The notes under the pieces: generated by a model
Databases searched by the model: none
What the model was told of the DNA's origin: nothing
What the model saw: the letters and a program-made list of their open reading frames with translations, nothing else
Assembly (NCBI GenBank): GCA_964534135.1
Contig: CAZHQC010000002.1
Coordinates: forward strand, 1 to 50,062
Length of the DNA stretch: 50,062 nucleotides
Source of the DNA: an uncultured Elusimicrobiaceae bacterium
GTDB lineage: Bacteria; Elusimicrobiota; Elusimicrobia; Elusimicrobiales; UBA9959
Direction of reading: 5' to 3'
Made by a program: the position numbers and the translations under genes
Shown here: positions 28,472 to 47,874 of the stretch, piece after piece
How positions within the stretch are numbered: position 1 is the stretch's first letter
How the letters are laid out: each line of letters starts with the position of its first letter

Positions 28472-28544
28472 ATCCTATACGGCTGTAGGTACATTTCATT
28501 TTGTAATCTAAATGTGTCATTCTTGCTTGCGAGGGGGAGGTTTT

Positions 28545-29375: not shown

Positions 29376-29438
29376 AGTGGAAGTAGTAGGGATGGTTGGA
29401 AATTTCAGTGATTTAAAATTGCGCGAGGAGAGAAAAAA

Positions 29439-31344: not shown

Positions 31345-31471
31345 CTTTGTTCACCTGCTTATGTGTCAAAAGGTGTGTTTGATAGATAAAAGTTGGCAGG
31401 ACAATAATGAGAGAATGAAGTGTTGTTAAAAGTTTTAAAGAGCGGCTTATGATCGCTAAGGAGATTGTAAA

Positions 31472-31774
31472 GTGAAAAATACTGATAATGATGTAAGGAC
31501 GCTTGTTCTTGATGAAGAGATATATTCCAAAGAAGCTATAACCTTAGCAGCTTATATTTATTCGGAAAAGGCGGAGATAGGGCATAAGAAAAAAAGTGGC
31601 AAAGTTGAGATTAAATTTAAAGCAATTGAGTCGTCTAATGAAAATTTGGCGGATGATTTTGTCAATGAGATTTTAAATCAGCAGTGCAGAATAGATTTGA
31701 CTAAGAAAAACTCTAAGGTTTCTCAGATAATAACAACGAAAGCTTTATTATCAGCCGCGGGAGAGCGCATATAA
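31472..31774 (+). CDS. HxsD-like small protein, copy 2
   Basis: GTG start after an AAGGAG SD. 100 aa. It is homologous to the first ~95 aa of 29439..29918. Confidence 0.45.
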   Translation: MKNTDNDVRTLVLDEEIYSKEAITLAAYIYSEKAEIGHKKKSGKVEIKFKAIESSNENLADDFVNEILNQQCRIDLTKKNSKVSQIITTKALLSAAGERI

Positions 31775-31788
31775 GGGGTTGATGGTTT

Positions 31789-32916
31789 ATGAAAAAAGGT
31801 TTGATATTAATAACGGTTATTTTATTCGTTTTAATACTGGCATTGAGATATGTAGAGGAAAAAAGCGGAAGATCTGATAGAGACGGCGCTATAATTCAGA
31901 CTGAAAAAGGCGTTGAGGGTGTTTCTTTACCTAAAGGAAAGGACTCGGAGAATCTTATGCCTGAGTTGGAACCGGAAAGTTATGATGGCGGTTTAGTGTC
32001 ATATAATGACCCTCTTACTTTATCTGAAGGTGAAGAAAAATTGAAAAAAGCCTGTAAAAAGGGTTCTGTTAAGGACATCTTCATGGCGCATGGTCAAATT
32101 TGGGGATATGGCATAGCAAGCTCGAAAAGTTTTAACGGTGAAGAGAGTAAAACGATTTATGACCGTTTAGCTCAATATACTGCATGTAGGGCAGCGGCTA
32201 AGAGAAATGTTGATTATTGTAATAGGCTGCCCTCTGGATTAAAAGGTGTTCGGAATATTCCCGCGCGCCTGAGTTCGCAGCACGAATGCATTGATATTGC
32301 CAATAATGTTATTTTTTCCGATTTTATGGCCGGAAATATTAAAGATACATCTTCTTGTTTATTGCTTTTATCGGGTGATATGTTTAAAAATGTCCCAATT
32401 CCGAATGATATGTTTTGTAAGGCTGCGGGAACAGGGCTTGAAAATATTTGCGAATCTTTTAAAAAACTGGGCGTTAAAGGTACCGACAAAGATTTGCCTC
32501 CGTGCTATAAATTTTTTCCGCGTAAATTATCCGATTGTGCTTCAAATTCTTGCAGGCTTAGATATAAGATTTATCAGGGAATAAAAGACAAGAAACCAGA
32601 AAATTGTCCTGATGGCTATAAGAGCGTATGCAGCGCGTATCTTTCGAGATCTACAAAGTCTTGTGAGAAATTGGCATTGAGTCTTTCCAAGACCTATTGT
32701 AATTTTCTTAAGCGTGTTAATAAAGCGAGTGGCAATGCGCCCGGCATGAGTGATGATGAAATAAAACAACATGCTGCACAATTAGAAATGGAAGCAGCAG
32801 AGAAAAGACAGCGTGCAGAAGAAGAACGTCTTTTTGAGAAAAAACGTAAAAAAGAGGATGAGAAGGTAATCAAAGAGATTAATTCGAGAGTAAAAAAACT
32901 TTTGGGGAAAAAATAG
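31789..32916 (+). CDS. membrane-anchored or exported Cys-rich protein with a charged coiled-coil tail
   Basis: N-terminal hydrophobic helix GLILITVILFVLILAL. About 20 Cys are spread through the central domain. The C-terminus is EMEAAEKRQRAEEERLFEKKRKKEDEKVIKE. I recognise no family. Confidence 0.5.
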   Translation: MKKGLILITVILFVLILALRYVEEKSGRSDRDGAIIQTEKGVEGVSLPKGKDSENLMPELEPESYDGGLVSYNDPLTLSEGEEKLKKACKKGSVKDIFMAHGQIWGYGIASSKSFNGEESKTIYDRLAQYTACRAAAKRNVDYCNRLPSGLKGVRNIPARLSSQHECIDIANNVIFSDFMAGNIKDTSSCLLLLSGDMFKNVPIPNDMFCKAAGTGLENICESFKKLGVKGTDKDLPPCYKFFPRKLSDCASNSCRLRYKIYQGIKDKKPENCPDGYKSVCSAYLSRSTKSCEKLALSLSKTYCNFLKRVNKASGNAPGMSDDEIKQHAAQLEMEAAEKRQRAEEERLFEKKRKKEDEKVIKEINSRVKKLLGKK

Positions 32917-32924
32917 AGGTTTTT

Positions 32925-33290
32925 ATGAAGAAAAAAAATAAAATAGGTAAAAACATAAAAATGTTTTTGAATAGTGAAGAAGGCAAAATGCTTGATTCTG
33001 ATATAGTTAAGACCGGACTTGCTTTGGGTATTCTTGGAGGAGCCATAATGGATGCGAGTGTGGCCCATGGCGTGATTCATTCAAATTACTTTAGGTCCAC
33101 TTATCATGTAAGCCATCAAAGCCACGGTTCTCACGGTTCTCACGGTTCTCATGGCTCCCATGCTTCTCACGGCTCGCATAGTTCGCATGGTTCGCATGGT
33201 TCGCATGGTTCGCATGGTTCTCACGGCTCTCATGGTTCTCACGGCTCTCACGGCTCTCATGGCTCTCATGCCAGAGGCGGTTGGTGTTGA
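32925..33290 (+). CDS. hxsA: His-Xaa-Ser repeat precursor protein (HxsA-type)
   Basis: 121 aa. It has a basic N-terminus, FLNSEEG, a hydrophobic segment GLALGILGGAIM, then 18 uninterrupted H-x-S triplets (HVS HQS HGSx4 HAS HGS HSS HGSx9), ending HARGGWC. An AGAGG RBS precedes it. Confidence 0.8.
   Translation: MKKKNKIGKNIKMFLNSEEGKMLDSDIVKTGLALGILGGAIMDASVAHGVIHSNYFRSTYHVSHQSHGSHGSHGSHGSHASHGSHSSHGSHGSHGSHGSHGSHGSHGSHGSHGSHARGGWC
33105..33266 (+). repeat. 18 tandem 9-bp units (CAY-GGY-TCN) encoding the HxS array
   Basis: Read directly: cat/cac ggt/ggc tct/tcg/tcc units. A run of three identical catggttcg units occurs in the middle. Synonymous variation elsewhere argues for selection on the peptide rather than simple slippage. 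Confidence 0.9.
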
Positions 33291-33475: not shown

Positions 33476-34540
33476 ATGCCATCCTTTGCTGATAACAATT
33501 TAAAATATATTCAAAAAAAATTTAAAAATATTGATTTGCCGGTTATAAAAGCCAGAATAAAAAACATACAATGGCCTGTTTGGAAAAAAGCCAAAGTATG
33601 CGAAGTAACGGTAAATTCAATATGCAATAACAGGTGTTTATTTTGCTATAACAGTGAAAAATATTTTGGTAGTGAACCTGATGCTGATTTTAAAGCAGTT
33701 TGTCGGGCCTTATATGAAGGAAGAAAGCAAGGGGCGTGGATTGCGGCTATTATCGGGGGAGAACCGTCTTTAAATAAAGATATAGGAAAGCTCGCTTCCG
33801 TCGCGAGAAAGATAGGGTATGATTGCGTTAAGATATGCACCAATGGCCTTAAACTTTCAGATAAGGCTTATACTCGACATTTGGTTGAAAGCGGTTTTAA
33901 TATGTTTGATATTTCAATACACGGGCATACTGCCAAAATACATGATACGCTTGTAAATTCAAAAGGGGCTTTTTCAAAAATAATGAAAGCTGCGGAAAAT
34001 GTAAAAGATTATTCCGCGGAACTCGGAACAAATCAAGTTATCAATAAACTTAATTATAAAAGTTTTCCTAAATTTTTTAAGTTGGCCTATGTGGATTTGG
34101 GGATAAATTATTACAATATTATCTATTCTCATTATCGCGGTATGATGTGGAAAAACAAGCAGGTGCTTAAAATTCCCATTACAAAGACCGCGCCATATAT
34201 AAAAGAAGGTTTTAAAGTAATAAAAGATTTAAAAATGCCTGTTTTTTCCAGAATGCTGGTTAATTTTCCGCCTTGCATATTTCCCGAATATCTTGATATT
34301 TTGGCTGATTGGGAATCTGAAGAGGAAGGAGCTGATTCTCTTTTGCTTCCCGGGGGTGAAATTGTAAATATGGCGGAAATGAAAAATAAACAGGCGGCAA
34401 AATCCGCATCTTGCGCGCAATGTTTTTTAAATGATAAATGTCATGGTATAGATAAAGAATACTTGGACATTTTCGGAGGAAAGGAATTTAAGCCTATAAA
34501 AAAGAAAGATATAAAAAAATATTTTAAAACGATATTTTAG
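33476..34540 (+). CDS. radical SAM protein, C-type paralog 1 (HxsC-like?)
   Basis: CNNRCLFCYN (CX3CX2C), IIGGEPSL, internal NFPPCIF, and C-terminal CAQCFLNDKCHGIDKEYLDIFG. It has a ~45-aa N-terminal extension. Confidence 0.7.
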   Translation: MPSFADNNLKYIQKKFKNIDLPVIKARIKNIQWPVWKKAKVCEVTVNSICNNRCLFCYNSEKYFGSEPDADFKAVCRALYEGRKQGAWIAAIIGGEPSLNKDIGKLASVARKIGYDCVKICTNGLKLSDKAYTRHLVESGFNMFDISIHGHTAKIHDTLVNSKGAFSKIMKAAENVKDYSAELGTNQVINKLNYKSFPKFFKLAYVDLGINYYNIIYSHYRGMMWKNKQVLKIPITKTAPYIKEGFKVIKDLKMPVFSRMLVNFPPCIFPEYLDILADWESEEEGADSLLLPGGEIVNMAEMKNKQAAKSASCAQCFLNDKCHGIDKEYLDIFGGKEFKPIKKKDIKKYFKTIF

Positions 34541-34553
34541 GTTTTTCTAGGTA

Positions 34554-35642
34554 GTGATGAATACATTTAATAAAGAAATAAATAAATTTAAAATAGCTTT
34601 AACTTCCGATTGTTGTTTGAGGTGTTCACATTGTTTTATTGATAAAGATTTGAAGGAAAAAACGAATCGTAAGATGGTGGATAGCGTATTGGATTTGTTT
34701 ATAAATTCCAAGGGGACAAAAAAGATTCTTGAAATTTATGGTGGAGAGCCTTTTTTGGAATTTGAATTATTAAAAGAAGTTGTGGCTTTGGCGCGAAAAA
34801 AAGCTTTAAAAAAAAGAAAAGAACTTTCCATATCGGTAGCTAGCAATGGAGTGCTTATTTTAAATAAACATCTTAACTACATGCTTGAAAATAATATAAG
34901 GCTTTCCATCAGTTTTTCCGGGACAAAAGAAACTCAAGATTTGGTTCGAAAATTCCCGGGTGGTGAAGGCAGTTACCTTATTATAAAAAAGAAACTTCCC
35001 AATATTTTAGCTAAACTCGGCCAAAAACTGCATATTATTTTTTGTGTTCATCCTTTAAGGAGTTCTTTTGTTTATAAGGATTTTAAGGCTCTTGTTGCTA
35101 TGGGCGTTAAAAACATAGGAATAGAGTGTGTACATGGATTTAAATGGACGGAGTCGGATTATAAGAATTTTTCAAAAGGAATGGAAAAGATAAGTTCTTA
35201 TGTAATTAAAAAAGTTAAATCAGGAGATTTTATTCTTCTAGAGTCTTTAATGGAAGCCTTTAGGGAAAAAACTTATGAAAATGATTTTTGTCCGTTTTTA
35301 AGAGATTTAGAGATGTTTCCCGATGGCACCCTATCATTATATCCATATCCTTTTGTTAAAGGTTTGGCGCAGAGGAAAAAAATATCCGTAGGCACCGCTT
35401 TAAAAGGAATTAAAAAAAAATATTCTTCTTGTTTGCCAAAATCAGGGTCTGTAAAGTGTAATAATTGTTTAGCCAAGTATTATCAGCTTTCGGGGCTTTA
35501 TGAAGGAAGTGTGGCATATAATATGAGAACGGATATAAGTGTAAAAGCTGTAAGAGATATCCTTGATATGTCCAAACAAGACGGAGTTTTGAGAGATTAT
35601 CTTAAAACCTTATTAAAACTTTTCAAAAAAGGATACACCTAA
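34554..35642 (+). CDS. radical SAM protein, X-type 1 (SPASM/twitch-like C-terminus)
   Basis: DCCLRCSHCFI, IYGGEPFLEF, and C-terminal Cys residues (FCPF...., SSCLPKSGSVKCNNCL). It is related to 42584..43645. Confidence 0.65.
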   Translation: MMNTFNKEINKFKIALTSDCCLRCSHCFIDKDLKEKTNRKMVDSVLDLFINSKGTKKILEIYGGEPFLEFELLKEVVALARKKALKKRKELSISVASNGVLILNKHLNYMLENNIRLSISFSGTKETQDLVRKFPGGEGSYLIIKKKLPNILAKLGQKLHIIFCVHPLRSSFVYKDFKALVAMGVKNIGIECVHGFKWTESDYKNFSKGMEKISSYVIKKVKSGDFILLESLMEAFREKTYENDFCPFLRDLEMFPDGTLSLYPYPFVKGLAQRKKISVGTALKGIKKKYSSCLPKSGSVKCNNCLAKYYQLSGLYEGSVAYNMRTDISVKAVRDILDMSKQDGVLRDYLKTLLKLFKKGYT

Positions 35643-35695
35643 TTCAAATAGTTTAGTGTTTGGGTAATACCTAAGTAAAGTTATAAATCGGAGCA

Positions 35696-37126
35696 ATGGA
35701 GATTCAAAATTCGATGAAAAAAGAAGTTTACCGACCTTTTATAAATTATTTCCAAAGATCTCCGCGCGGCTATTTTCTTTCAAATGATGCCGGGTATAAT
35801 ATCACTTTAACTAAAAAGCAATTTGAGAGTTTTCTAAAAGGAAATTTAAAAGACAAAAAATGCAAAAATCAATTGGTTGAAAAGGCATTTTTTAGAAACA
35901 GGCTTAATTTTGATTTATTGTCGGAAAGATTAGGTTCGTATTTGCTTAAAGATTGGAAAGGGCCGCACATACATATAATAAGCCTTACAAAAAGATGTGA
36001 TTCAAATTGTTTTTATTGCGGAGCAAATGCGACTAACAGTCTTGTGCGCAAGCATGATATGTCTCTTGAAATTGCCGAGAAAACGGTGGATTTTATTTTC
36101 AAGGTTCAATCTCAAGACTTAATGATAGAGTTTCAAGGCGGAGAACCGCTTTTAAATTTTAAAATTGTTAAATTTATTGTTAATTATGCCAAAAAGAAAA
36201 ATAAGATATTTAAAAGAAATATTCATTTTTCCATAGTGACTAATTTAATAGGCATGGATGAAAAAAAATTGGCTTTTTTAATAAAAAATAAAGTTACGGT
36301 TTGTTCTTCTTTGGACGGTCCGCAAGTTCTTCATGATAAAAACAGAAAGATATCCAAGGGGTCTGCTCATTCGATAGTGGCAAAATGGCTGAAAAAAATA
36401 AGTCTTCTTGCTAAAAAAAATACCGCTATTGAAGCGCCAAATGCCATTTGCACAATAAGCCGTTCTTCGCTTAAATATCCGGAAAAAATAGTGGATGAGT
36501 TTTTAAAATGCGGGCTCAATCGTGTGCAATTAGGGCCATTGGATCCTTTAGGCAGGGCGGCGCTTAATTGGGATAAAGTGGGCTATGATGCTAAAGAGTT
36601 TTTAAATTTTTATAAAAAGGCTTTTGATTATATTATTGAGTTGAATAAGAAGGGCATAGATATTTATGAGAAAGGGGCTTTGATGTTCGCTCGCCAGATA
36701 TTAACGGGAGAACGCCCGAGATATCAAAATTTGGATTTTATATATAGACTTGCCTACAATTATAATGGGAATATTTATGGGAGTGATGAGGCAAGAATGT
36801 TAAGCAATAGCGCCGATGAGTTTTTTCAATTGGGTAATGTTTATGAAGATTCTTTTGGAAGTCTTTTAAATAAGCCAATTAGCAGAACTCTTTTTCTCTC
36901 CGCTTTTGGTTTTTTAACTCAGCCCAAATGCGCTCGCTGCGCTTATAATCCGTATTGCCATATTATGCCGGTCTATAACTATGCGGCGCAAGGAAGTTTT
37001 TGGGGCAATATGGCTATCAATGAGAGATGCAAAATTTTTAAAGGCGTTTTTGATATAATTATAAGTAAAATGGAGGACAAAACCGTCAAAAGAATGTTTA
37101 TCAATTGGACAAAAAATTATCAGTGA
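35696..37126 (+). CDS. hxsB: HxsB-like radical SAM maturase, paralog 2 (degenerate SPASM cysteines)
   Basis: RCDSNCFYCG and IEFQGGEPLLNF. The first auxiliary-cluster block is Cys-free (YQNLDFIYRLAYNYNGNIYGSDEARM). The last block keeps only CARCAYNPYC (HIMPVYNY replaces GVCPVYNY). Confidence 0.6.
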   Translation: MEIQNSMKKEVYRPFINYFQRSPRGYFLSNDAGYNITLTKKQFESFLKGNLKDKKCKNQLVEKAFFRNRLNFDLLSERLGSYLLKDWKGPHIHIISLTKRCDSNCFYCGANATNSLVRKHDMSLEIAEKTVDFIFKVQSQDLMIEFQGGEPLLNFKIVKFIVNYAKKKNKIFKRNIHFSIVTNLIGMDEKKLAFLIKNKVTVCSSLDGPQVLHDKNRKISKGSAHSIVAKWLKKISLLAKKNTAIEAPNAICTISRSSLKYPEKIVDEFLKCGLNRVQLGPLDPLGRAALNWDKVGYDAKEFLNFYKKAFDYIIELNKKGIDIYEKGALMFARQILTGERPRYQNLDFIYRLAYNYNGNIYGSDEARMLSNSADEFFQLGNVYEDSFGSLLNKPISRTLFLSAFGFLTQPKCARCAYNPYCHIMPVYNYAAQGSFWGNMAINERCKIFKGVFDIIISKMEDKTVKRMFINWTKNYQ

Positions 37127-37141
37127 TATTGCGGCATTATA

Positions 37142-38041
37142 ATGAAAAGAATAGATATTAAAGTCGGATTTGAATGTAATAATTATTGTGATTTTTGCGC
37201 GCAGGGGAATAAAAGAGACGGCATTAAAAGGAAGTCTCTGAAAGAAATAACGGATATTCTTAAGGATGCCAGAAAAAAAGATATTTTAGGCGTAGTTTTT
37301 ACGGGTGGAGAGCCCACTATGCATCCCAATCTTATTGATGCTGTTAAGGCCGCTAAAAAAATGGGATTTTTTTCCATTCAAATTCAAACCAATGGCAGAA
37401 GATTCGCTTACTACGATTATTGTCTTGAGCTTAAGCGCGCGGGTGTTACCGAAATGGGGCCGTCTTTGCATGGCTCGAAGCCTGAAATTCATGACAAATT
37501 AACTAATGCCAAGGGAAGTTTTAAAGAAGTTGTTAAAGGCATAATAAACTGTAAAAAACTCGGTATGTATGTTTTAACAAATACCGTTATAACTTCGGAT
37601 AATTATAAAGACTTGCCCGATTTGGCCCGCTTATTGACTCATCTTAAAGTGGATCATTTTCAGTTCGCTTTTGTTCATATAATCGGAACGGCATTGAAAA
37701 ATAAAAAATGGATAGTGCCCCGGAAAAAACTGATTATGAAATATGTTCATAAAGGGCTTGATATAGGTTTAAATGCGGGAATTAATTGTTTTACTGAAGC
37801 TATACCTTATTGTTTTATGAAAGGTTATGAACAATGTGTGGCGGAAGAGGTAATTCCGGAAGGGCCGGTGGCGGATGCGGATATTTATGTTGAAAGTTAT
37901 GGCGATTATAGAAGAAATCAAGGTAAAATAAAACATAAAAAATGTAAAAAATGCCTGTATTTTGAAAAATGCGAAGGACCGTGGCGGGAATATCCGGAAA
38001 TCTATGGCTGGGACGAATTTGTGCCCATTAAAAAGCTTTAG
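37142..38041 (+). CDS. radical SAM protein, C-type paralog 2
   Basis: CNNYCDFCAQ, FTGGEPTMH, AIPYCFMKGYE, CKKCLYFEKCEGPWREYPEIYG. Confidence 0.7.
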   Translation: MKRIDIKVGFECNNYCDFCAQGNKRDGIKRKSLKEITDILKDARKKDILGVVFTGGEPTMHPNLIDAVKAAKKMGFFSIQIQTNGRRFAYYDYCLELKRAGVTEMGPSLHGSKPEIHDKLTNAKGSFKEVVKGIINCKKLGMYVLTNTVITSDNYKDLPDLARLLTHLKVDHFQFAFVHIIGTALKNKKWIVPRKKLIMKYVHKGLDIGLNAGINCFTEAIPYCFMKGYEQCVAEEVIPEGPVADADIYVESYGDYRRNQGKIKHKKCKKCLYFEKCEGPWREYPEIYGWDEFVPIKKL

Positions 38042-38059
38042 AAGTAAAAAGGCGGCAAA

Positions 38060-39478
38060 GTGAAAAAAAATAATTTATGTAATTTTAATTTCGAAAAACT
38101 TGGAAAAGATTATTTTATTTCCAATGATTTCGGCAATTGGCTGGTAATTAACGCAAGTGATTTTAATAAAATTTCAAATAATAATTTTTCCGCGAAATCA
38201 GAAATTTATCGGCATTTAAAAAAGGAAGGTTTTTTAAAGGACTACTTGGATTTTGACGGTTTATCGCGGCAGCTTAATAAACTTATGCCCTTTGCTCATA
38301 TAGGCCCGAGTTTACATATTATTGTTGTAACGCTTAAATGTAATCATGCTTGTGTTTATTGTAGAGCCATTAGCCACGAAAATAATTTTCAAAATACAAA
38401 CATGTCTTTTGCCACGGTTCAGAAAAGCGTCAATATGGCGCTTGAAAGTCCAAATCAAAATATAACGCTGGAATTTCAAGGCGGTGAAGCGCTTATAAAT
38501 TGGGCTATTGTTAAAAAGGCCATTAAATATGCCAAGGCGAAAAATAAAAAAACAAAAAAGAATCTTATTATTTCACTTGTCAGTAATTTTAGTTTAATGG
38601 ATAATGAGAAATTTAAATTTTTATCCGATGAAAATATTTCCGTATGCACTTCCTTGGATGGCCCCGGGTTTATTCATAATAAGAATAGAGTTTATCTGGG
38701 TGGCAATTCTTATGATTTGACTGTTAAATGGCTAAAGAAATTTTCTAAGAAAACGGCTACATTAAAAGGAAAAGAAGATTCCTTGCCTTCAGCTTTAATG
38801 ACAACTACAAAATATTCTTTGGCATATCCAAAAAAAATAGTGGATGAATATTATAATTTGGGTTTTGGCGGAATTTTTCTCCGGACTTTATCGCCTATCG
38901 GTTATGCCAAAGAGGTTTGGGGCGAGATTGGCTATGCTCCCGAAGAGTATCTTCGTTTTTATGAAAAAGCTATGGATTGTATTTTGAAGTTAAATAAAGA
39001 GAAGGGTAAATTTGTTGAGAGAACGGCAGCTATAATATTGCGAAAAATTTTAAAAAAAGAAGATCCCAACTATTTGGATTTGCGTTCTCCATGCGGGGCA
39101 AGCATAGGGCAGATGGCTTATAATTACAATGGAGATATTTATACATGCGATGAAGGGAGGATGGTGGCGGCAAAAGGTGATACTTCTTTCCGCATTGGAA
39201 ATGTTACCGGCAGTTCTTATAAAGATTTGATTAATTCCAATGCTTCAAAAGTATGCCTTATATCTTCCTGCCTTGAAAATCAGGTTAAATGCTTTCGTTG
39301 CGCATTTAAGCCTTTTTGCGGCGTATGTCCGGTGCATAATTATGAAACGCAAAATTCTCCCTGGGGCAATATGGCGGATAGCGATTGGTGTAAAATACAA
39401 AAAGGAATTTTTAAAATTATAGTGAAAAAACTTCAAAAAAAAGAATACAAGAAAATTTTTGAAAGTTGGTTTGAATAA
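38060..39478 (+). CDS. hxsB: HxsB-like radical SAM/SPASM maturase, paralog 3
   Basis: GTG start. KCNHACVYCR, LEFQGGEALINW, SPCGASIGQMAYNYNGDIYTCDEGRM, CFRCAFKPFCGVCPVHNY. It shares a 38-nt identical stretch with paralog 1 (39336-39373 = 31199-31236). Confidence 0.65.
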   Translation: MKKNNLCNFNFEKLGKDYFISNDFGNWLVINASDFNKISNNNFSAKSEIYRHLKKEGFLKDYLDFDGLSRQLNKLMPFAHIGPSLHIIVVTLKCNHACVYCRAISHENNFQNTNMSFATVQKSVNMALESPNQNITLEFQGGEALINWAIVKKAIKYAKAKNKKTKKNLIISLVSNFSLMDNEKFKFLSDENISVCTSLDGPGFIHNKNRVYLGGNSYDLTVKWLKKFSKKTATLKGKEDSLPSALMTTTKYSLAYPKKIVDEYYNLGFGGIFLRTLSPIGYAKEVWGEIGYAPEEYLRFYEKAMDCILKLNKEKGKFVERTAAIILRKILKKEDPNYLDLRSPCGASIGQMAYNYNGDIYTCDEGRMVAAKGDTSFRIGNVTGSSYKDLINSNASKVCLISSCLENQVKCFRCAFKPFCGVCPVHNYETQNSPWGNMADSDWCKIQKGIFKIIVKKLQKKEYKKIFESWFE

Positions 39479-40362
39479 TGCCCGATATAGCTTTTTGGAA
39501 TAAATGCAATAGCAATTGCATAATGTGCACCAATATGGATTCTTTTATTAATCAAGATTCGGCGCAATATGGCCTTAAAGAACAGATTAAAAAATTTGAG
39601 AGTTATTTATTGAGAGGCGGAACTTATTTGAAAAATCCTGAGGATGACAGTTTTCTTAATTTAACGGGCGGCGAGCCCACGCTGCATCCTAATTTTTTTA
39701 AGCTTATTGTTTATTTTAGAAGGCGTGTTCCGCTTGCAAGAATTGTTTTGCTCACCAATGGCAGAAAATTTTCAAGTTTAACTTTTACCAAGAAATTTAT
39801 GAGTGTGGCAAAACCGCCTTTTGAAATTGCCTGCGCTCTTCACGGCTCAACTCCGGCAAAGCATGACGCTGTTACAAGAGTGAAAGGAAGCTTCAAGCAG
39901 GCCTTGAAAGGCATTGAAAATATATTGAAATTATCAAAAGGGCAGAAACTGGAAATAAGAATTGTTCTCATTAAACAGAATATAAATGATTTTGAAAATA
40001 TTCTAAAGTTGTTTTTGAAAAAATTTCCCGACACCTCAAAATATAGGATTATTATCATTCATTATGAAATTGAGGGCATGTCTTTGCTAAATCATGAGAA
40101 AATATCTTTAAGTTTAAAAGAGTCTTCCGGCATTATAAATAAATCCTTTAAATTTATTGGAAAATTTAAGGATTTTAGGCTTTACCATTTTCCGTTATGC
40201 TTATTAACTGCGAGGCTTCGTAAATATGCTTGGATTACTCTGCCTATGGAAGATCGCATATATAAAAAAGAGTGCCGAAGATGTTCAGAGAGAAAGAATT
40301 GTCTGGGGCTTATGAAAACTTATTATGAGTATTTCGGTGATGATGAAATTCATGCTTTGTAA
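39478..40362 (+). CDS. radical SAM protein, C-type paralog 3
   Basis: TAATG overlap with the upstream gene. CNSNCIMCTN, LTGGEPTLH, HFPLCLL, CRRCSERKNCLGLMKTYYEYFG. Confidence 0.7.
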   Translation: MPDIAFWNKCNSNCIMCTNMDSFINQDSAQYGLKEQIKKFESYLLRGGTYLKNPEDDSFLNLTGGEPTLHPNFFKLIVYFRRRVPLARIVLLTNGRKFSSLTFTKKFMSVAKPPFEIACALHGSTPAKHDAVTRVKGSFKQALKGIENILKLSKGQKLEIRIVLIKQNINDFENILKLFLKKFPDTSKYRIIIIHYEIEGMSLLNHEKISLSLKESSGIINKSFKFIGKFKDFRLYHFPLCLLTARLRKYAWITLPMEDRIYKKECRRCSERKNCLGLMKTYYEYFGDDEIHAL

Positions 40363-40449: not shown

Positions 40450-41619
40450 ATGAACAAAATATCTTTTATAGCTTTAATTGTTTTTGCCGGTTGGTCCATA
40501 GCGGTTGTAAAAGAGGATTTTGAAATTCAAAAAATCCGTAATAAAAAAATTCTGCTTGGCATAAAATTTTTCGTTTTATTCTTTCTGGCAATGGCATATA
40601 ATACTTACTTGGGTTATACGGGCCAGGTTGACAGTTTTCTTAATATTGATTTTTACGGTCTTTGGGTTATTCATTTCGCTTGGACATTTCTTGCCGCGAT
40701 AATACTTTGGTATGGTGAGATTTGGCCCGCGGGAGACGCTAAGTTTTTTATTTTGATAAGTTCCTGTCTTCCTCTTATAAATCCTTTTATAAAAACTTTC
40801 CCGCATTATCTCTTTTTAAGTTTGCTTATAAATGTTTTTGTTGTCGCGGCTATTTTTGCTTTTATAAATTATGTGTCTGAAGGTATAAGGCAGGCAAGCC
40901 CGGGAGATTTTTTTAATGAGCAATGGCAGGCTTTGCGAAAGCGAGCAATTGCTTTATCTGAGGAAGGGGGCTTGAAAAAATTTTATATATTTTTTTACGC
41001 CATAAATATAGGTTTTATTTTTTTACTGCATCAGATATTTGCCATGGAATTAAAAAACACTTTCGGCCGTATTATATTGAGGACTGAAATAATTTATTTT
41101 ATTCTTTTCTTTTTATGGGAGAAAGTGGCGGAAAACTTTAGAAGCAAGAAATGGGTTTATATCTCTCTTGTAGCTTATGGCATCTATTTTATTAGCGGTT
41201 ATTTTCTTTTTCCTTATCGGCTTATGGATTTATTGATGATTGCTTTAATGAATGTCCTTAAATTTAGCGTTATACTTTTCGTGGGAAGATATATGTTTGA
41301 ATTTATTATGGAAAAAAAAGATACTTATTCTGTCGAAGCCGGGGAACTGATGCCTCATATGGTTTTATCTTCAAAGATGATGAGAACCTTAAGAGATAAT
41401 CCTGTTTTTGAAGGAGCTTTTGACGATTGTTTTAAAGATGGGCTTACAACCGAACAAATTGATCTTTTATCTGATTGGCTCAGTAAATTAAAAGTTGAGA
41501 AACCAAAAGTTGAAATTATAAAAGGCCGGCCTTTTGCTTTGTGGATATTTGTGGGCGCGGTTATTTTTCTTCTTTTTAATAATAATATTGTGGATATAGC
41601 GGGGATATTTAAAAAGTGA
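40450..41619 (+). CDS. polytopic membrane protein with a prepilin-peptidase (A24, TadV/CpaA-like) N-terminal domain
   Basis: First Asp context AVVKEDFEIQKIRNKKILL (compare D-l-x-x-x-x-I-P-N). Second Asp in WPAGDAKFFIL (compare G-x-G-D-x-K-L). Further TM helices and a soluble C-terminal region follow. Confidence 0.5.
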   Translation: MNKISFIALIVFAGWSIAVVKEDFEIQKIRNKKILLGIKFFVLFFLAMAYNTYLGYTGQVDSFLNIDFYGLWVIHFAWTFLAAIILWYGEIWPAGDAKFFILISSCLPLINPFIKTFPHYLFLSLLINVFVVAAIFAFINYVSEGIRQASPGDFFNEQWQALRKRAIALSEEGGLKKFYIFFYAINIGFIFLLHQIFAMELKNTFGRIILRTEIIYFILFFLWEKVAENFRSKKWVYISLVAYGIYFISGYFLFPYRLMDLLMIALMNVLKFSVILFVGRYMFEFIMEKKDTYSVEAGELMPHMVLSSKMMRTLRDNPVFEGAFDDCFKDGLTTEQIDLLSDWLSKLKVEKPKVEIIKGRPFALWIFVGAVIFLLFNNNIVDIAGIFKK

Positions 41620-42554
41620 ATAAAAAATCGTCCAAAAAAATTAAAATTGTTATTTTTACGGGTTATGCCTGCAATAATAATTGCCGGTTTTGTATAAATT
41701 CAAATAAGCGGGAACTTCTGGAAAAGACAACGGATGAATTAATTAAAGAAATTTATCTGGCTAAAAAAAAGAAAGCAGATATCATAGAAATAATAGGGGG
41801 AGAATCTACCATAAGGTCTGATTACACGCATTTGGTTTCATTCGCGAAAAAAATCGGAATTAAAGAGGTTTTAAGCGCCACAAACGGCAGGATATTTTCG
41901 GATTTTTCCGCCGCTAAAAAAATAGTGGATAGCGGTATTACGGGGCTTATATTTTCTTTGCACGGACATAATTCAAAAACCCATGATTATTTGACCAGAA
42001 GCCCGGGCAGTTTTAATGAATTGATAAAAGGAATAGAGAATTTAAAAAAGCTTGGTTTTAGAAGGATAAATGGCAATACTACTATTGTTAAGCAGAATAT
42101 GCGGTTTTTACCTGAAATAGCGGAAATATATGCCAGGTATCATGTGCGCAATGTTGAATATATTTTTGTCGATCCGACTTATGGTGGGGCTTATGATAAT
42201 TTTGAAATGTTGGTGCCAAAAATATCAAAAGCGAGTGTATATATGAAAAAAGCCATTGATATCGGTCTTGAGTATGGTTATTCACAATGGAAAGCCAGAT
42301 ATGTTCCACTTTGTTATTTCAAGGGTTATGAAAAACATATAAGTGAAATCAATGAGAGAATTCTTTTTTCTACTGAACACTGGGCTCCGGATTTTAAAAA
42401 TACGGACGCTTTAGCTTCAAGACAGCTGGTGTCAAGAAAAAAAACAATGCGTTGTAAGGGTTGTTCGTTTTATAATGCCTGTGAAGGTATATGGGTGGAA
42501 TATATTAATCATTATGGTGATAGTGAGCTTAAGCCGGTAAAGAAAATAGAGTAA
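41616..42554 (+). CDS. radical SAM protein, C-type paralog 4
   Basis: GTGA overlap with the upstream gene. CNNNCRFCIN, IIGGESTIR, YVPLCYFKGYE, CKGCSFYNACEGIWVEYINHYG. Confidence 0.7.
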   Translation: MNKKSSKKIKIVIFTGYACNNNCRFCINSNKRELLEKTTDELIKEIYLAKKKKADIIEIIGGESTIRSDYTHLVSFAKKIGIKEVLSATNGRIFSDFSAAKKIVDSGITGLIFSLHGHNSKTHDYLTRSPGSFNELIKGIENLKKLGFRRINGNTTIVKQNMRFLPEIAEIYARYHVRNVEYIFVDPTYGGAYDNFEMLVPKISKASVYMKKAIDIGLEYGYSQWKARYVPLCYFKGYEKHISEINERILFSTEHWAPDFKNTDALASRQLVSRKKTMRCKGCSFYNACEGIWVEYINHYGDSELKPVKKIE

Positions 42555-42583: not shown

Positions 42584-43645
42584 ATGGAGAGAGTTTTAAT
42601 GAATGCGCCGAATAATCTTGTTATATATATGAGCGGTTTATGTAATCTTAGATGCTCCTATTGCTATGTTAAAGACACCGTTTTTGAAAAGCCAATAGAG
42701 AAAAAAGTTTTACTAAGAGCTGTTTCAAAGTTTTTAAATTCTCCGGGTAAAAGCAAGAAAATAACCTTTCTTGGGGGAGAGCCTTTTCTGCATTTTAATT
42801 TGATAAAAGCTGTCATAATTTTTATAAGAAAAGAAACAAAAAACAATTTGCCTGTGCATATATTTACCAATGGTTTGTTAATTGATGAAAAAATATCTAA
42901 GTTTATAAAAGATTTCAATATTAATCTGATTGTCAGTTTAAATGAGCGGGATATGTCTGTCGGAATATTCAAAGCGAGAAGAGATATCAAAAAGATTTTT
43001 AAATATATTGAGCTTGGAAAGACAACTGTATCCTTGGTAATAAAGAAAGAAGCGGCAAATGATTTGTTTAACCATGTTTCAAGCTTGTATAAATTAGGGT
43101 TTAGGCATATTGCCTGGTCTCCGGATATAACAAAAATCTGGAATGAAAAGGAAATTTTAGCCTTGAAGCGTGAAATGCTTAGACTCCGAAGGCATTATCT
43201 CCAATTGATTAAAAAAGGGCTTGAGCTTTATGAAATTGCCAACGCGTATGAAATTATGGATAAAATTCTCAAGCGTCCCTTCATCGACGCATGTATGAGC
43301 GTGATTCTTTGTTCCGATGGAAATTTCATTCCTTGTGATAAGCTTATTGCAAGTGATAAAAATGGTGTTGAAAAGTATGCTTCATCTCAAGTGGCGGGCG
43401 GAAAGAAAAAAAATCTTTTTTTTAAAGAAGCTTTAAAATATGGCGCGGATGTAAAAAATTTAATGTGTCCCGTAGGGGCGTTCGCGTATAGTAAATATGT
43501 TTTAAAAAGCGGGGCTTCCGAGGTTAAAAGGGCGGTGAAACAGCATATAAAATTATCCGCTGTTATTGAAGAGAATTATTTTTTATTATTTAAGCAAGCC
43601 TTGAAATATTCGGCATTTAGAAAGGCGTATAATATTAATGATTAA
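42584..43645 (+). CDS. radical SAM protein, X-type 2
   Basis: CNLRCSYCYV, FLGGEPFLHF, and late Cys cluster DACMSVILCSDGNFIPCDKL ... LMCPVG. Confidence 0.65.
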   Translation: MERVLMNAPNNLVIYMSGLCNLRCSYCYVKDTVFEKPIEKKVLLRAVSKFLNSPGKSKKITFLGGEPFLHFNLIKAVIIFIRKETKNNLPVHIFTNGLLIDEKISKFIKDFNINLIVSLNERDMSVGIFKARRDIKKIFKYIELGKTTVSLVIKKEAANDLFNHVSSLYKLGFRHIAWSPDITKIWNEKEILALKREMLRLRRHYLQLIKKGLELYEIANAYEIMDKILKRPFIDACMSVILCSDGNFIPCDKLIASDKNGVEKYASSQVAGGKKKNLFFKEALKYGADVKNLMCPVGAFAYSKYVLKSGASEVKRAVKQHIKLSAVIEENYFLLFKQALKYSAFRKAYNIND

Positions 43646-44855
43646 AAAAGCTAAAATTTCCAAAAAAGCAATAAGTGATGATATGAAAAAAGAATCACTA
43701 AATAAATGCTATGAGATAATTCTCAATTATAATTGTAACGCCAAGTGTCTTTTTTGTTCGCAGGGCTCATTTGATAAGTCTTTAAACGCCGGTTTTGATA
43801 ATATAGCCAAGAATATATATTCAGCTTATAAAATGGGTTATCGCCGGCTTGGCTTTACGGGCGGTGAGCCTTTATTGCGCGGCGATATAATAAAAATTAT
43901 TTCTTTGGCGAAATCTATCGGTTTTGATTTTATAAGAATTCAGACAAACGGGATAAAACTTGCGAATAAAAAATTCGCCGGGCAATTGGTCGAAGCCGGT
44001 CTTACTGTTTGCAAATTTTCTTTTTTAAGTGATAAGGCCAAGGTTCATGATGAATTGGTGGGCGTAAAGGGAGCTTGGAAAAAAGCAATGCTTGGCTTGA
44101 AAAATTTAAAAAGCCAGAAAGTAAGAGTTGGGACCAATATACTTATCAATAAATATAATTTTAACCGCCTTGATGAGATAATATATTATTTCCTTGAAAA
44201 GGGAATAAGCAATTTTGTGATGATTTATCCCATGTATATAGGAAGCATGAAAGCTAATCATTTAAAAATCGGCGTTTCTCTGCCTAAGGCAAAAAAATAT
44301 TTTATAAGCGCCATTAAAGTTATGAAAAAGGCGGGCTTGCCCGATGAAATCCTTTTTTTAAATGTGCCTCCTTGTTTTTTGAAGGGCTATGAATCCTTAT
44401 CCATAGGACTTGAGAATTTTAATACTTTAGTTACCGATCCCAGCGGCATTAAAACCGATTTGGATGAAAACGCGGACAAGGCCAAAGTCCGCATTCCGTT
44501 GTGCCGGACTTGCGTTTTTAAGAAAAAATGTTCGGGCATAGACAAAAATTATATTGATATATGGGGCCTGCCAAAATTTATTTCTCAGGAAAAAAAGAAA
44601 AAAACATCTGCACTTGGCGAAAAAGTATTTTTCTCCGACAATGAAAGATGTTTTATTGAAATACTCAAAAGCAAAGTTCCCGCTTCAACGGCTGAGGTAT
44701 TGAAGTTGGCGAAAAATATAATTTTATGTCGTGATTGTTCGGACGGCAATGCCGTTATAGTTGCCGCTGAAAGTCTTATAAAGAAAAAAATTGTCGAGAA
44801 AATTTTTAAAAAAGGGCGCTATTATTGGACACTTAAAAGCGCTGGGAAAAAGTAA
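43638..44855 (+). CDS. radical SAM protein, C-type paralog 5, with a ~90-aa winged-helix-like C-terminal extension
   Basis: CNAKCLFCSQ, FTGGEPLLR, NVPPCFLKGYE, CRTCVFKKKCSGIDKNYIDIWG. The extension is ERCFIEILKSKVPASTAEVLKLAKNI....VIVAAESLIKKKIVEKIFKKGRYYWTL. Confidence 0.7.
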   Translation: MIKKAKISKKAISDDMKKESLNKCYEIILNYNCNAKCLFCSQGSFDKSLNAGFDNIAKNIYSAYKMGYRRLGFTGGEPLLRGDIIKIISLAKSIGFDFIRIQTNGIKLANKKFAGQLVEAGLTVCKFSFLSDKAKVHDELVGVKGAWKKAMLGLKNLKSQKVRVGTNILINKYNFNRLDEIIYYFLEKGISNFVMIYPMYIGSMKANHLKIGVSLPKAKKYFISAIKVMKKAGLPDEILFLNVPPCFLKGYESLSIGLENFNTLVTDPSGIKTDLDENADKAKVRIPLCRTCVFKKKCSGIDKNYIDIWGLPKFISQEKKKKTSALGEKVFFSDNERCFIEILKSKVPASTAEVLKLAKNIILCRDCSDGNAVIVAAESLIKKKIVEKIFKKGRYYWTLKSAGKK

Positions 44856-45701
44856 ATGGCTTTATTGCGTATTATTCATACTTGTAATCAAGATTGCGTG
44901 TTTTGTTCTTATCTTGGGAAAAACGCGAAGAATAAAAAATATGATTTTAAGGAATATTCTCTTGAAATAATTAAATCCAAAGACAAACTTATCCAGATAT
45001 CCGGCGGGGAGCCGTTTCTTTTGGGTGGAATAAATCTCTTAAAGCTGGTTCTTTTTGCTGTTAAAAATAATAAGAAAGTGGAGATACAAAGCAATGCTTC
45101 CCTTATTAAGGATATCTCTTTAGATATTTTAAAAAAATTGATTAAGGCGGTTAATTTATCGAAAGGTTACTTTAATATTAATCTTTCAGCGGCAGATGTT
45201 ATTACGGACGAAAGAGTAGCTGGCGCGAAAAATATATTCGCGGATAAAATAAAAGGCATAAAATTATTATATACGCTTGGCGCTGATATAAGATTGACTT
45301 ATATTATTTGCAGATCGAATTATAAACAAACTCCTGAATTTGTAAATTTTATACTCAAAGAATTTCCCGGCATTAAGTGGGTGCAATTTAGTTTTGTTAA
45401 GGCCATGGGAAAAGCTTTAACTAAGAAAATAGTTCCCAAATATCGGACTGTAAAAAAATATATTATTAAAGCGGCTTCGCTTTGTGAAAAAAATAAAATA
45501 ATGTGTGAAATAGATCATATTCCGTTATGTATGCTGGGCTCTTATTATCGTTTTAACGTTGATATAGGAAAAATAAATGAAAATAAAAACGGTTTACATA
45601 GGCAAGAGAAAACGCATATAAAAAGATGCTTAAAATGTAAATATGTTAATATTTGCTCGGGACCGAGAAAAGATTATCTTAAAATATACGGAGATTTATA
45701 A
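44856..45701 (+). CDS. radical SAM protein, C-type paralog 6
   Basis: CNQDCVFCSY, ISGGEPFLL, HIPLCMLGSYY, CLKCKYVNICSGPRKDYLKIYG. Confidence 0.7.
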   Translation: MALLRIIHTCNQDCVFCSYLGKNAKNKKYDFKEYSLEIIKSKDKLIQISGGEPFLLGGINLLKLVLFAVKNNKKVEIQSNASLIKDISLDILKKLIKAVNLSKGYFNINLSAADVITDERVAGAKNIFADKIKGIKLLYTLGADIRLTYIICRSNYKQTPEFVNFILKEFPGIKWVQFSFVKAMGKALTKKIVPKYRTVKKYIIKAASLCEKNKIMCEIDHIPLCMLGSYYRFNVDIGKINENKNGLHRQEKTHIKRCLKCKYVNICSGPRKDYLKIYGDL

Positions 45702-46954
45702 TGAGGGGCGCAAAAAATATTTTGCCTTTAAAAAAGGAATTTCCCGCATTAAAGCGCAGGATTTCAAAAAAAGCGATAGTTTATCTTGATAGCGCTTGCA
45801 CCGCTTTAAAAATGAAATCAGCGGCTCGCGAGCAGAGCGATTTCTTGCTTGAATCCGGAGCTTGCGCCGGCAAAAGATCCGTTCATTTGCTTAGCCGCGA
45901 AGTGGAAAATAAAATTTGCGCGGCGCGTAAAGCCATTGCTTCATTTATCGGAGCGGATAGCTTGGACGAAATAGTTTTTACAAGCGGAACAACTGAAAGC
46001 GCCAATATCGCGGCCGCAAGTTTTCCTTTTAAAAAAGGAGCCGAAGTTATCCTATCTCCTTTAGAGCATAATAGTGTTTTTCTCCCGTTTTATCGTTTAG
46101 CTGGAGAAGGCAAAATAAAGCTTAAAATTATTCCGCTTAAGAATTTTAAACCGGATTTTAACGTTTATAAAAAAATGCTTAATTCTAAAACGGCTCTTGT
46201 TTGCATAACTCATGCTTCCAATATTTTTGGCGGTATTGTGGATATCAAAAAATTTATAAATGCCGCTCATAAGAAAGGGGCCAAAGTTTTTATTGATGAC
46301 GCTCAGTATATCCCTTCGCATAAAGAAAATGTCAGCGCTTTGAATGCGGATATGCTGGCTTTTTCAGGTCATAAAATGGGCGCTCCTTTTGGCACCGGGA
46401 TTTTATATATTAAGAGAAGTCTTTTTAAATTTTTAAAATCTTCAAAGTTGGGTGGGGGAACTATTAAGGAAATAGTTCTTGAAGATGGCCTATATAGAGT
46501 TTGTTTTCTTGAAAATAATTTGGCTTATGAAGCCGGTATTCAGAACTATTCCGGTATTGCGGCGCTTAAAAAATCTTTTGAATTATTACATGAAATCGGC
46601 TATGAAAATATAAGGAAGCACCTTCAAGAGATTGTTGAATATGCTTATGCGAAACTTTCGTCTTTTAAAGAAATAAAAATTATAGGCAATCAGAGAGATT
46701 TGTCAAAAGGAAGTCTTATATCTTTTGTATGTGAAAATCCTAAATTTTCCATTATTGATTTTAATCTTTTCTTGCAGGAATATTCGGCTAAATATTTTGT
46801 GGCTGTAAGATGTGGCCGACATTGCGCGGATTTAGCTATTTTAAATTCGGATATAAAATCTACGGTTAGATTGTCATTTTTTATTTATAGCTCAAAGCGC
46901 GATATTGATGTTTTTTACCGGGCCTTAATTCTTTATCTAAAATCTTTTTCATGA
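45701..46954 (+). CDS. class V aminotransferase / cysteine desulfurase (SufS/NifS-like)
   Basis: TAATG overlap with the upstream gene. HASNIFGG, DDAQY, PLP-lysine context FSGHKMGAPFGTGILYI, and catalytic-Cys context RCGRHCA. Confidence 0.75.
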   Translation: MRGAKNILPLKKEFPALKRRISKKAIVYLDSACTALKMKSAAREQSDFLLESGACAGKRSVHLLSREVENKICAARKAIASFIGADSLDEIVFTSGTTESANIAAASFPFKKGAEVILSPLEHNSVFLPFYRLAGEGKIKLKIIPLKNFKPDFNVYKKMLNSKTALVCITHASNIFGGIVDIKKFINAAHKKGAKVFIDDAQYIPSHKENVSALNADMLAFSGHKMGAPFGTGILYIKRSLFKFLKSSKLGGGTIKEIVLEDGLYRVCFLENNLAYEAGIQNYSGIAALKKSFELLHEIGYENIRKHLQEIVEYAYAKLSSFKEIKIIGNQRDLSKGSLISFVCENPKFSIIDFNLFLQEYSAKYFVAVRCGRHCADLAILNSDIKSTVRLSFFIYSSKRDIDVFYRALILYLKSFS

Positions 46955-47874
46955 AAAAAAAATCCATTAATGACGCGGAACCCAATCTTTTTCTGACTGC
47001 CGAATGCAATCAGAATTGTATTTTTTGTTCGGCCAAGGGGGAAGATAGGAGTATGACAAAAAAGGAGCTTTCAGCCTGCCTCGCTTTGGGTTATAAATCG
47101 CTTGCTTTTGAAGGCGGCGAGCCTCTTATGAGTAAAGATTTAATATATTGGACTGAGCGCGCAAAAAAAAGTGGGGCGGATGAAATTATATTGCTTACAA
47201 ACGGGCTTTTGCTTACAGAGAATAAATTGAAGCTTTTAATACAAAAGGGAATAACCAAATTTGAATTTAATTTACCGTCTCATATAGTGAAACTTCATGA
47301 TACCTTGACCGGGTCAAAAAAGCAATTTCCAAAGAGAATAAGGGCGATTAAAAGGACGCTTAAATATATCAAAGACGGAGTAATAATAACTTTTGTTTTA
47401 AACGCCTTAAACTATAAAACCTTGCCTGCCTATATTAATTTTATAGCGAAAGAATTTCCTGGAACATTTTTTATAGCTTTAAATTTCATTAAAATAAAAG
47501 GGCTTGTTAAAAAAAGAAAATATCTTGTGCCAAAATTAAGCGAAACGAAGTTTTATATTCTTAAAGCTTTGGAAAAGGCCAAAAAAATGCATATGCCGAT
47601 TATATTGGATGGTTTTCCTTTATGCGTTTTAGACGGTTATGAGGAATATTCCAGAGATATCGACAGAATTATTAAAAGCGATAAGTCTTATCTGGGAGAG
47701 AAAAAGCATATAAAAAAATGTTTAAAATGCTCTTTAAAAGATATCTGCGCGGGGCCAAGAAAAGATTATTTGAACTTATTTGGAGATAAAGAGATTTCAG
47801 CTTCATCAAAAAAAATCGCGCCCATAATAAATAAAGTAAAAAAAGGCCAACTGCGATTGAATATTAAAGCTTAG
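46951..47874 (+). CDS. radical SAM protein, C-type paralog 7
   Basis: ATGA overlap with the upstream gene. CNQNCIFCSA, FEGGEPLMS, GFPLCVLDGYE, CLKCSLKDICAGPRKDYLNLFG. Confidence 0.7.
   Translation: MKKKSINDAEPNLFLTAECNQNCIFCSAKGEDRSMTKKELSACLALGYKSLAFEGGEPLMSKDLIYWTERAKKSGADEIILLTNGLLLTENKLKLLIQKGITKFEFNLPSHIVKLHDTLTGSKKQFPKRIRAIKRTLKYIKDGVIITFVLNALNYKTLPAYINFIAKEFPGTFFIALNFIKIKGLVKKRKYLVPKLSETKFYILKALEKAKKMHMPIILDGFPLCVLDGYEEYSRDIDRIIKSDKSYLGEKKHIKKCLKCSLKDICAGPRKDYLNLFGDKEISASSKKIAPIINKVKKGQLRLNIKA

Follow-up and report, generated by a model that had tools for sequence, protein, structure and literature searches.

Peptidases of family A24 are aspartic membrane peptidases of the GxGD type and include TadV/CpaA, PilD and FlaK. 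In their known substrates, the type IV and Flp prepilins, the cut falls where the hydrophobic helix begins, and to our knowledge A24 enzymes are known only for pilins, pseudopilins and archaeal flagellins/archaellins. The His-Xaa-Ser (HXS) system was shown in 2026 to act as antiphage defence; in E. coli, the N-terminus of its HxsA protein is processed in a non-canonical manner that depends on radical S-adenosylmethionine (radical-SAM) maturases and on a protease left unidentified, after which HxsA acts in the periplasm (PMC13128918). The DNA analysed here (the window) comprises 50,062 nucleotides of an uncultured Elusimicrobiaceae bacterium (assembly GCA_964534135.1, contig CAZHQC010000002.1, positions 1 to 50,062 of the forward strand). 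It contains, within one large cluster of HXS-type genes, a gene for an A24-like membrane protein (40450..41619, + strand) and a gene for a His-Xaa-Ser repeat precursor of the HxsA4 type (32925..33290, + strand). The explanation that accounts best for the observations, to which we nevertheless give somewhat less than even credence as a whole and which we hold tentatively, is a divergent, probably active A24 peptidase with HxsA4 as its best candidate client in the window.

The new element would be an A24 subfamily, probably active, that combines a new architecture with a new genomic role, comprises hundreds of sequence clusters and largely escapes the Pfam and NCBIfam models. Membership in a radical-SAM operon would widen the role of A24 peptidases to the maturation of peptides or effectors. 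Even with a client other than HxsA4, a protease so firmly tied to small radical-SAM enzymes would point to an unrecognised membrane step. Literature searches combining prepilin peptidase with radical SAM, ribosomally synthesized and post-translationally modified peptides (RiPPs) or precursor peptides retrieved no paper that links them.

The A24-like membrane protein

The open reading frame (ORF) 40450..41619 starts with ATG and encodes 389 amino acids. It carries both Asp-containing motifs that the first-pass annotation had read as A24 signatures, KEDFEIQKIRNKKILL at residues 21-36 and WPAGDAKFF at residues 92-100. The putative catalytic residues are D23 (codon 40516-40518, in V-K-E-D-F-E-I-Q-K-I-R-N) and D96 (codon 40735-40737, in W-P-A-G-D-A-K-F). 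Both lie in the predicted catalytic core of five helices (residues 1-150, 40450..40899, + strand), which is delimited by matches of orthologues to the Pfam profile PF01478 (Peptidase_A24) and by the invariance of the Asp motifs. D23 and W92-P-A-G-D96-A-K-F99 are invariant in an alignment of 54 orthologues, and in 69 diverse relatives of about 22% identity D23, W87, G95, D96, K98, N128 and F362 are still invariant; the conservation of the two Asp, on which the annotation had staked its assignment, is thus complete in these sets, and the motifs are no product of chance. That D23, G95, D96 and K98 are kept at such divergence is what one would expect of an active site and not of a relic. The two-Asp signature of A24 (D-x5-[IVL]-P-[ND] and G-x-G-D-x-K-[LF]) is present in the family; its first motif reads D-F-E-I-Q-K-I-R-N in the window and D-L-A-T-x-K-I-P-N, the classic A24 form, in the family consensus.

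In scans with hidden Markov models (HMMs), PF01478 matches 25 of the 54 orthologues at E≤1 (best E 4.4e-6) and 28 of the 69 distant relatives at E≤0.01, with orthologue residues ~11-135 covering profile positions 2-103 of 104. One orthologue (P0112, 27.5 bits) is the only relative above the curated Pfam cut-off of 26.5 bits, and two orthologues already bear the name 'prepilin peptidase' from the NCBI pipeline. A Ralstonia plasmid with Flp, peptidase, cpaB, secretin and cpaF served as reference Flp locus. The family core HMM aligned with 92 residues of its TadV-like peptidase, encoded next to Flp (hmmsearch, p 2.8e-6 in a single comparison), with D23 placed over SDLRSRRVPN and G-D96-A-K over (M)GAGDVKFF; the core alignment against this one TadV by hhalign recovered the first motif only (P 1.5e-4). 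Comparisons of the family with E. coli GspO by hhalign and hmmsearch were not significant, and only the first Asp motif aligned, with I-D-F-R-T-Q-L-L-P-D of GspO.

Two negative results count against the assignment. The window protein itself has no Pfam or NCBIfam match at E≤1, so that the profile check suggested in the first-pass annotation gives matches in 53 of 121 relatives, one of them above the cut-off, and none for the protein itself. Foldseek searches of the PDB with the full and the core AlphaFold2 (AF2) models returned nothing at E≤0.001 and no A24 fold such as the solved one of FlaK; the proposed structure prediction thus gave a confident model without a fold match. The latter weighs little, because A24 structures are very scarce in the PDB and E. 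coli GspO finds none by sequence. Sequence searches of the PDB with the window protein and two family profiles likewise gave nothing relevant and are uninformative, as E. coli GspO, taken as control, found no A24 chain in the same search. Taken together, the product of ORF 40450..41619 is very probably a divergent A24 homologue, which bears out the A24 reading of the first-pass annotation, and it is likely to be catalytically active as an A24 peptidase, judging from its motifs.

The AF2 model of the whole peptidase has ten membrane helices (predicted local distance difference test, pLDDT, 84.6; predicted TM-score, pTM, 0.80). The core modelled alone reaches a pLDDT of 95.6, with helices at residues 2-26, 31-56, 66-88, 94-110 and 121-148. 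The C-terminal extension (40900..41619, + strand) is specific to the family and consists, according to AF2 secondary structure and conservation, of some five additional membrane helices, then a soluble domain of alpha/beta type (residues ~290-360, 41317-41529, + strand) with the conserved motif NPVFEGAFDDCFKDGLTxEQ, and a last helix. It has no match in Pfam, NCBIfam or the PDB, and NCBIfam holds no model for the peptidase family. The family would therefore be described as an A24 core plus an extension of ~240 residues that no described family appears to cover. Loops 21-33 and 143-176 are rich in Lys and Arg. Reading the loop charges by hand places the N-terminus outside and D23, D96 and the soluble domain on the cytoplasmic side, from which it follows that the enzyme would act on a client directed to the membrane and cut an N-terminal segment that this client exposes to the cytoplasm.

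Compared with TadV/CpaA, the window peptidase shares the Asp motifs (D-x5-[IV]-[PR]-N and G-x-G-D-[AV]-K-[FL]) at similar spacing and the short five-helix core devoid of an N-methyltransferase domain. Unlike them, it has ~240 additional residues (five helices and the soluble domain), remains below the Pfam threshold and is encoded in a radical-SAM operon where no tad/cpa assembly genes were seen. With PilD/GspO it shares the GxGD aspartic active-site motifs, whereas the Cys-rich N-terminal methyltransferase region is absent and the genomic context differs.

Neighbourhood of the peptidase family

The family comprises 829 representative clusters at E≤1e-3 in an exhaustive profile search. A separate count gives 173 orthologues of the window peptidase. 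Every orthologue with a named organism is from Elusimicrobia, and metagenome bins of this group supply the closest protein relatives of the window. For the comparison of gene order, 145 peptidase-related loci (all loci are numbered with the prefix L) were collected from species-representative genomes and metagenomes, with up to 10 kb of DNA on each side. The peptidase gene is fixed between radical-SAM genes of ~300 codons: such a gene lies immediately upstream in 112 of 128 loci and immediately downstream in 110 of 119, where the two reading frames often overlap by 4 bases. The upstream neighbour is HxsC-like in 91 of the 128, the downstream neighbour HxsC4-like in 90 of the 119. This flanking is also kept in members of 24-27% identity and in an Omnitrophota genome.

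The window follows the same order. Immediately upstream of the peptidase lies an HxsC-like radical-SAM gene (39478..40362, + strand, 294 aa; TIGR03977 153 bits, below the cut-off of 268). An HxsC4-like one (41616..42554, + strand, 312 aa; NF038332 141.6 bits, below the cut-off of 500) follows downstream, its start overlapping the peptidase stop codon by 4 bases. The rest of the module (42584..47874, + strand) contains four more radical-SAM genes together with one for a class V aminotransferase (45701-46954), assigned by Pfam. The module of peptidase, several small radical-SAM enzymes and class V aminotransferase is recurrent, being found beside the distant members in L135 and L157 and even where neither HxsA4 nor HxsD is nearby. 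Because it recurs across distant loci, the small radical-SAM enzymes are the tight partners of the peptidase. This gene, of the class V aminotransferase or cysteine-desulfurase-like kind, is a constant of the module: most Elusimicrobia loci have it, as do L135, where it was recognised by sequence, and L157, where Pfam Aminotran_5 matches.

Tad or pilus assembly genes, which the first-pass annotation had reported as not visible, were likewise not seen by us in the 50-kb window, whose ORF translations were read and of which only the cluster genes were scanned with HMMs. The gene tables of related loci, which do not span whole genomes, contain no Tad/Cpa assembly genes either.

Four loci (L064, L066, L140 and L148) carry peptidase members of ~25-29% identity that adjoin a radical-SAM gene, ORFs resembling tetratricopeptide repeat (TPR) proteins and ORFs that are nitrogenase-like by N-terminal sequence alone; no HxsA4 occurs within 10 kb. 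We judge them to be of the kind of radical-SAM-rich loci known from groundwater Elusimicrobia, which contain group VI nitrogenase paralogues and for which tetrapyrrole reduction has been proposed (Meheust et al., bioRxiv 10.1101/765248). The main text of that study mentions neither the peptidase nor His-Xaa-Ser proteins.

The HxsA4 precursor as candidate substrate

The precursor gene (32925..33290, + strand) encodes 121 aa and matches the HxsA4 model NF038313 with 67.3 bits (cut-off 55); NCBI names its relatives HxsA4. Its N-terminus, as quoted in the first-pass annotation, is MKKKNKIGKNIKMFLNSEEG|KMLDSDIVKTGLALGILGGAIM..., the bar marking the candidate A24 cleavage site G20|K21. The protein is built of an N-terminal extension, a Sec-like signal and a part of the form HSNYF..(HGS)n..RGGWC. 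The extension (residues 1-20, 32925..32984, + strand) ends in a Flp-like box, F14-L-N-S-E-E-G20. The Sec-signal-like part (32985..33065, + strand) consists of a basic n-region from K21 (K21-MLDSDIV-K29), an h-region of 13 residues (T30-M42) and D-A-S-V-A47|H48, with a putative signal peptidase I site at S-V-A47|H48 by the -3/-1 rule. In the region of residues 52-121 (33078-33290) and in relatives, the mature part shows, besides the HGS repeats, a conserved H-x-N-Y-F at its beginning and, in most full-length relatives, R-G-G-W-C at its C-terminus. A match to Pfam Collagen in the precursor is artefactual and stems from the Gly-x-x periodicity of its HGS repeats.

In all, 122 HxsA4-type precursors were gathered from Elusimicrobia, Omnitrophota and one deltaproteobacterial bin. 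The box, generalised as [FY]-[LFM]-x-x-E-E-[G/A], is present in 122 of 122, and position -1 is only Gly or Ala (96 Gly and 7 Ala in a count of 103 relatives). Among 25 sequences F14, S17, E18, E19 and D26 are invariant, and G20 is kept in at least 90% and otherwise replaced by Ala. Real Flp genes have K-F-L-R-D-E-Q-G at the position of the F-L-N-S-E-E-G box. In hhalign comparisons of HxsA4 with three real Flp prepilins the score was 26.9-28.4 (P 7e-5 to 1.3e-4), with G20 over the Flp cleavage Gly. A reversed control scored 14, and the maximum of 40 column shuffles was 18.0. Shuffling the Flp leader alone lowered the mean score to 15, and shuffling only the part after the Gly left it at 26; since the score drops only with the leader shuffled, the likeness to Flp is genuine but does not reach beyond the pre-cleavage box. 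The annotation's comparison with class III/Flp signals therefore stands for this box (F-L-x-[DS]-E-x-G, the trait that HxsA4 as candidate substrate shares with the Flp prepilins of TadV/CpaA) and is not supported for the rest.

Beyond the box the precursor departs from known A24 substrates, and this, together with its uneven linkage to the peptidase, is what speaks against HxsA4 as client. The Flp_Fap HMM matches none of 25 HxsA4-type precursors at E≤10. G20 lies nine residues before the hydrophobic run and is followed by Lys. Over the 122 sequences Lys occupies +1 in 92%, mostly holds +4 and +5 (the latter otherwise Ala or Ser) and fills +9 in 89%, with Asp at +6 in 70%. The uncharged run starts at +10 with a median of 13 residues, so that the ~20-residue helix from +1 of the Flp type, with Glu at +5 (and Tyr at +6), is not encountered; the mature Flp N-terminus (A-T-A-I-E-Y and an immediate helix of ~22 residues), as processed by TadV/CpaA, has no equivalent in HxsA4. 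An A-x-A motif follows the h-region in 76 of 122 sequences (62%). The part after G20 accordingly reads as the n/h/c anatomy of an ordinary Sec signal preceded by an N-terminal extension.

As to linkage, the two genes are ~45 bp apart in L058. In L070 a peptidase of 341 aa stands among two HxsA4 precursors, and in L157 a precursor lies 9.5 kb upstream of a peptidase of 27% identity, with shikimate genes in between. One genome apparently has both on the same 67-kb contig, more than 10 kb apart. Often, however, only one of the two is found in the DNA covered: of the 82 peptidase loci that extend at least 9 kb upstream, no more than 16 contain the HxsA4 leader, and 33 peptidase loci with HxsD and HxsB have no leader or precursor within 10 kb. 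Conversely, the HxsA4 loci L159 and L164-L166 contain no peptidase homologue within the up to 10 kb covered on each side, their constant HxsA4 neighbours being HxsD, HxsB and a small unannotated protein (Cys-rich in L164). Absence in a locus is not absence in the genome, because the clusters often run past the 10-kb limit. The annotation had suggested that the precursor is processed by the peptidase; with the leader in so few peptidase loci and at least four HxsA4 loci without a peptidase within 10 kb, this goes beyond the evidence, and the enzyme-substrate link is plausible but unproven. In L157 (1-11266), the shikimate-pathway block (chorismate mutase/shikimate dehydrogenase through 5-enolpyruvylshikimate-3-phosphate synthase) separates the precursor from the radical-SAM/peptidase module.

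On these grounds it is quite conceivable, if on balance doubtful, that Sec exports the precursor and signal peptidase I alone cuts it, after the A-x-A site, with the box serving HxsB/HxsD as a RiPP-style recognition element or holding the precursor back, and with the A24-like protein acting on some other client. The typical signal anatomy, with its Lys at +1, +4, +5 and +9, its 13-residue h-region and the frequent A-x-A, suits this explanation. So does the company of HxsA4, which is flanked by HxsD, HxsB and the small protein in every locus examined, including the four lacking the peptidase, and so does a peptidase that travels with its radical-SAM and aminotransferase module even without HxsA4 or HxsD near. 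What it leaves unaccounted for is the Gly or Ala before Lys+1 in 122 of 122 sequences, which equals the A24 cleavage rule and would not be needed by a binding motif alone, and the likeness of the box to the Flp pre-cleavage box. Moreover, searches near the peptidase gave no other client whose N-terminus bears a class III-like signal: an HMM of the leader, run on 38,507 six-frame ORFs of the collected loci, retrieved only HxsA4 genes (one new case, in L157), and a small-ORF search in the distant loci L157 and L158 gave no other precursor-like gene. In favour of HxsA4 as substrate, neither the canonical HxsA of Klebsiella nor an HxS-repeat ORF that adjoins hxsD in Leptospira, there labelled merely hypothetical, has the box, and the Klebsiella and Leptospira stretches examined carry no annotated peptidase gene.

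The remaining alternatives concern the enzyme itself. Tight coupling to radical-SAM genes on both sides and a large family-specific extension with a soluble domain would also be expected of a non-catalytic membrane scaffold or export adaptor that tethers the small radical-SAM enzymes through its cytoplasmic domain and keeps the A24 core as a relic. The invariance of the two Asp, of the Gly before and of the Lys after the second Asp in 69 sequences of ~22% identity makes this very unlikely. Slightly less credible still is a cut inside the Gly-rich h-region (T-G-L-A-L-G-I-L-G-G) in the manner of signal peptide peptidase (SPP), before or after signal peptidase I, that releases or clears the N-terminal fragment. 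G35 and G38 in it are nearly invariant, it contains a G-x-x-x-G-like pattern, and the GxGD active site is common to A24, presenilin and SPP, GxGD proteases of which the latter two act on signal sequences. Gly-rich h-regions are nevertheless common in signal peptides, the conserved upstream box would be left unexplained, and we know of no bacterial A24 enzyme that cuts inside a helix. Presenilin/SPP and the extended signal peptide region of autotransporters, a conserved N-terminal extension before a normal Sec signal, are analogies only, with no sequence relationship to the peptidase or HxsA4. Finally, the protein could be a general prepilin peptidase for type IV, Tad or type II secretion system pilins encoded elsewhere, placed in the operon by accident. 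The A24 homology and a pilin-like N_methyl gene 10 kb from one Omnitrophota HxsA4 locus agree with this. It is highly improbable in view of the radical-SAM embedding in more than 85% of ~120 loci from at least two phyla, the lack of visible pilus genes in the window and a peptidase that combines an unusual 240-residue extension with the absence of a methyltransferase domain.

The reading we prefer, with HxsA4 as a substrate of the peptidase, is put forward as a tentative candidate, and that the cut would fall exactly after G20 is more doubtful. Under it, cytoplasmic maturases would modify the His-Xaa-Ser core, and the peptidase would then take off the 20-residue extension after F-L-N-S-E-E-G20. 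An ordinary Sec signal starting at K21 would be left, and signal peptidase I would remove it near A47, freeing the His-rich product into the periplasm. Such a cleavage fits the non-canonical N-terminal processing of E. coli HxsA (PMC13128918), though a peptidase gene of this kind is missing from the E. coli system. The HxsA4 branch would supply candidates for both the protease and the cleavage box behind the N-terminal cut of the HXS effector reported there.

A more specific form of this proposal, which we consider unlikely as it stands, makes the peptidase a licensing protease, by which export would be coupled to maturation by the radical-SAM enzymes. The acidic F-L-x-S-E-E-G extension would retain the precursor in the cytoplasm on the maturases, and a dedicated TadV-derived GxGD peptidase, docked to them through its cytoplasmic domain as we propose, would remove the extension once modification is done and so unmask the Sec signal at Lys+1. 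If true, this would be the first A24 enzyme recruited to the maturation of a peptide natural product or defence effector, and it might explain the non-canonical N-terminal processing reported for HXS systems.

Remaining genes of the window cluster

The window has a G+C content of 32-39%, and all genes from 28.5 to 47.9 kb are on the + strand. Scanning the cluster for promoters and terminators gave counts at the level of shuffled sequence, which are therefore uninformative on operon breaks. The cluster contains about 14 radical-SAM genes, three HxsB among them, two of which exceed the TIGR03978 cut-off. In Elusimicrobia, clusters of this kind reach a very large size and are uncharacterised; Omnitrophota share some of the components.

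The head of the Hxs cluster (28512..32916, + strand) was assigned by synteny with other loci. It starts with a secreted protein (28512-29375, likely true start 28545; no Pfam match), here called the TTYYP protein after its mature N-terminus, L-T-L-T-T-Y-Y-P-S-P-Y-G-G-Y. HxsD-like (29439-29918), HxsB (29887-31344) and a second HxsD-like gene (31472-31774) follow. A Cys-rich, N-terminally anchored protein without family match (31789-32916) is encoded directly upstream of the precursor. Six radical-SAM maturase genes (33476..39478, + strand) lie between the precursor and the HxsC gene, among them HxsB equivalogs at 35696-37126 and 38060-39478 (TIGR03978, 411 and 499 bits, cut-off 370). Measured against HXS-system models, HxsB is thus above its cut-off, the best HxsC reaches 153 of 268 bits, and the window's HxsD-like genes have no Pfam match, PF27806 matching only the orthologous genes. 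The window resembles the HXS system of E. coli and Klebsiella (HxsABCD) in its HxsB equivalogs, HxsC-like and HxsD-like genes and a His-Xaa-Ser repeat protein with signal peptide. The canonical system differs in having four genes and no membrane peptidase, in contrast to about 14 radical-SAM genes and a precursor of 121 aa in the window.

The TTYYP protein heads the Hxs cluster in most Elusimicrobia loci, is present in three copies in L070 and occurs as I-T-I-T-N-Y-Y-P-S-P-F-G-V-Y in the Omnitrophota HxsA4 locus L164. It appears to be a core component of HxsA4 systems, unrecognised because it has no Pfam match. As an alternative client of the peptidase it was rejected: its N-terminus lacks a Gly/Ala site ahead of the hydrophobic run, and the Omnitrophota version has a plain signal peptide. 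The position of the Cys-rich protein is occupied by unannotated genes of 218-360 aa in L073, L159, L160, L164 and L165, the one of L164 being visibly Cys-rich; relatives of the window protein were found by tblastn in L023 and L038.

Just upstream of the Hxs cluster, a pair of barnase-type ribonuclease and barstar genes is located in L072 (4044-5007) and L160 (97-1064), not in the window. In the window, two large membrane/TPR-like proteins are encoded upstream of the cluster at 20729-22906 and 25897-28404 (+ strand). Their C-terminal ~150 residues are nearly identical, as if the end had been duplicated, and share the stretch …IKESK…GAKLD.KKAI.IN..NIEAQI.MCSINLSQKDF….

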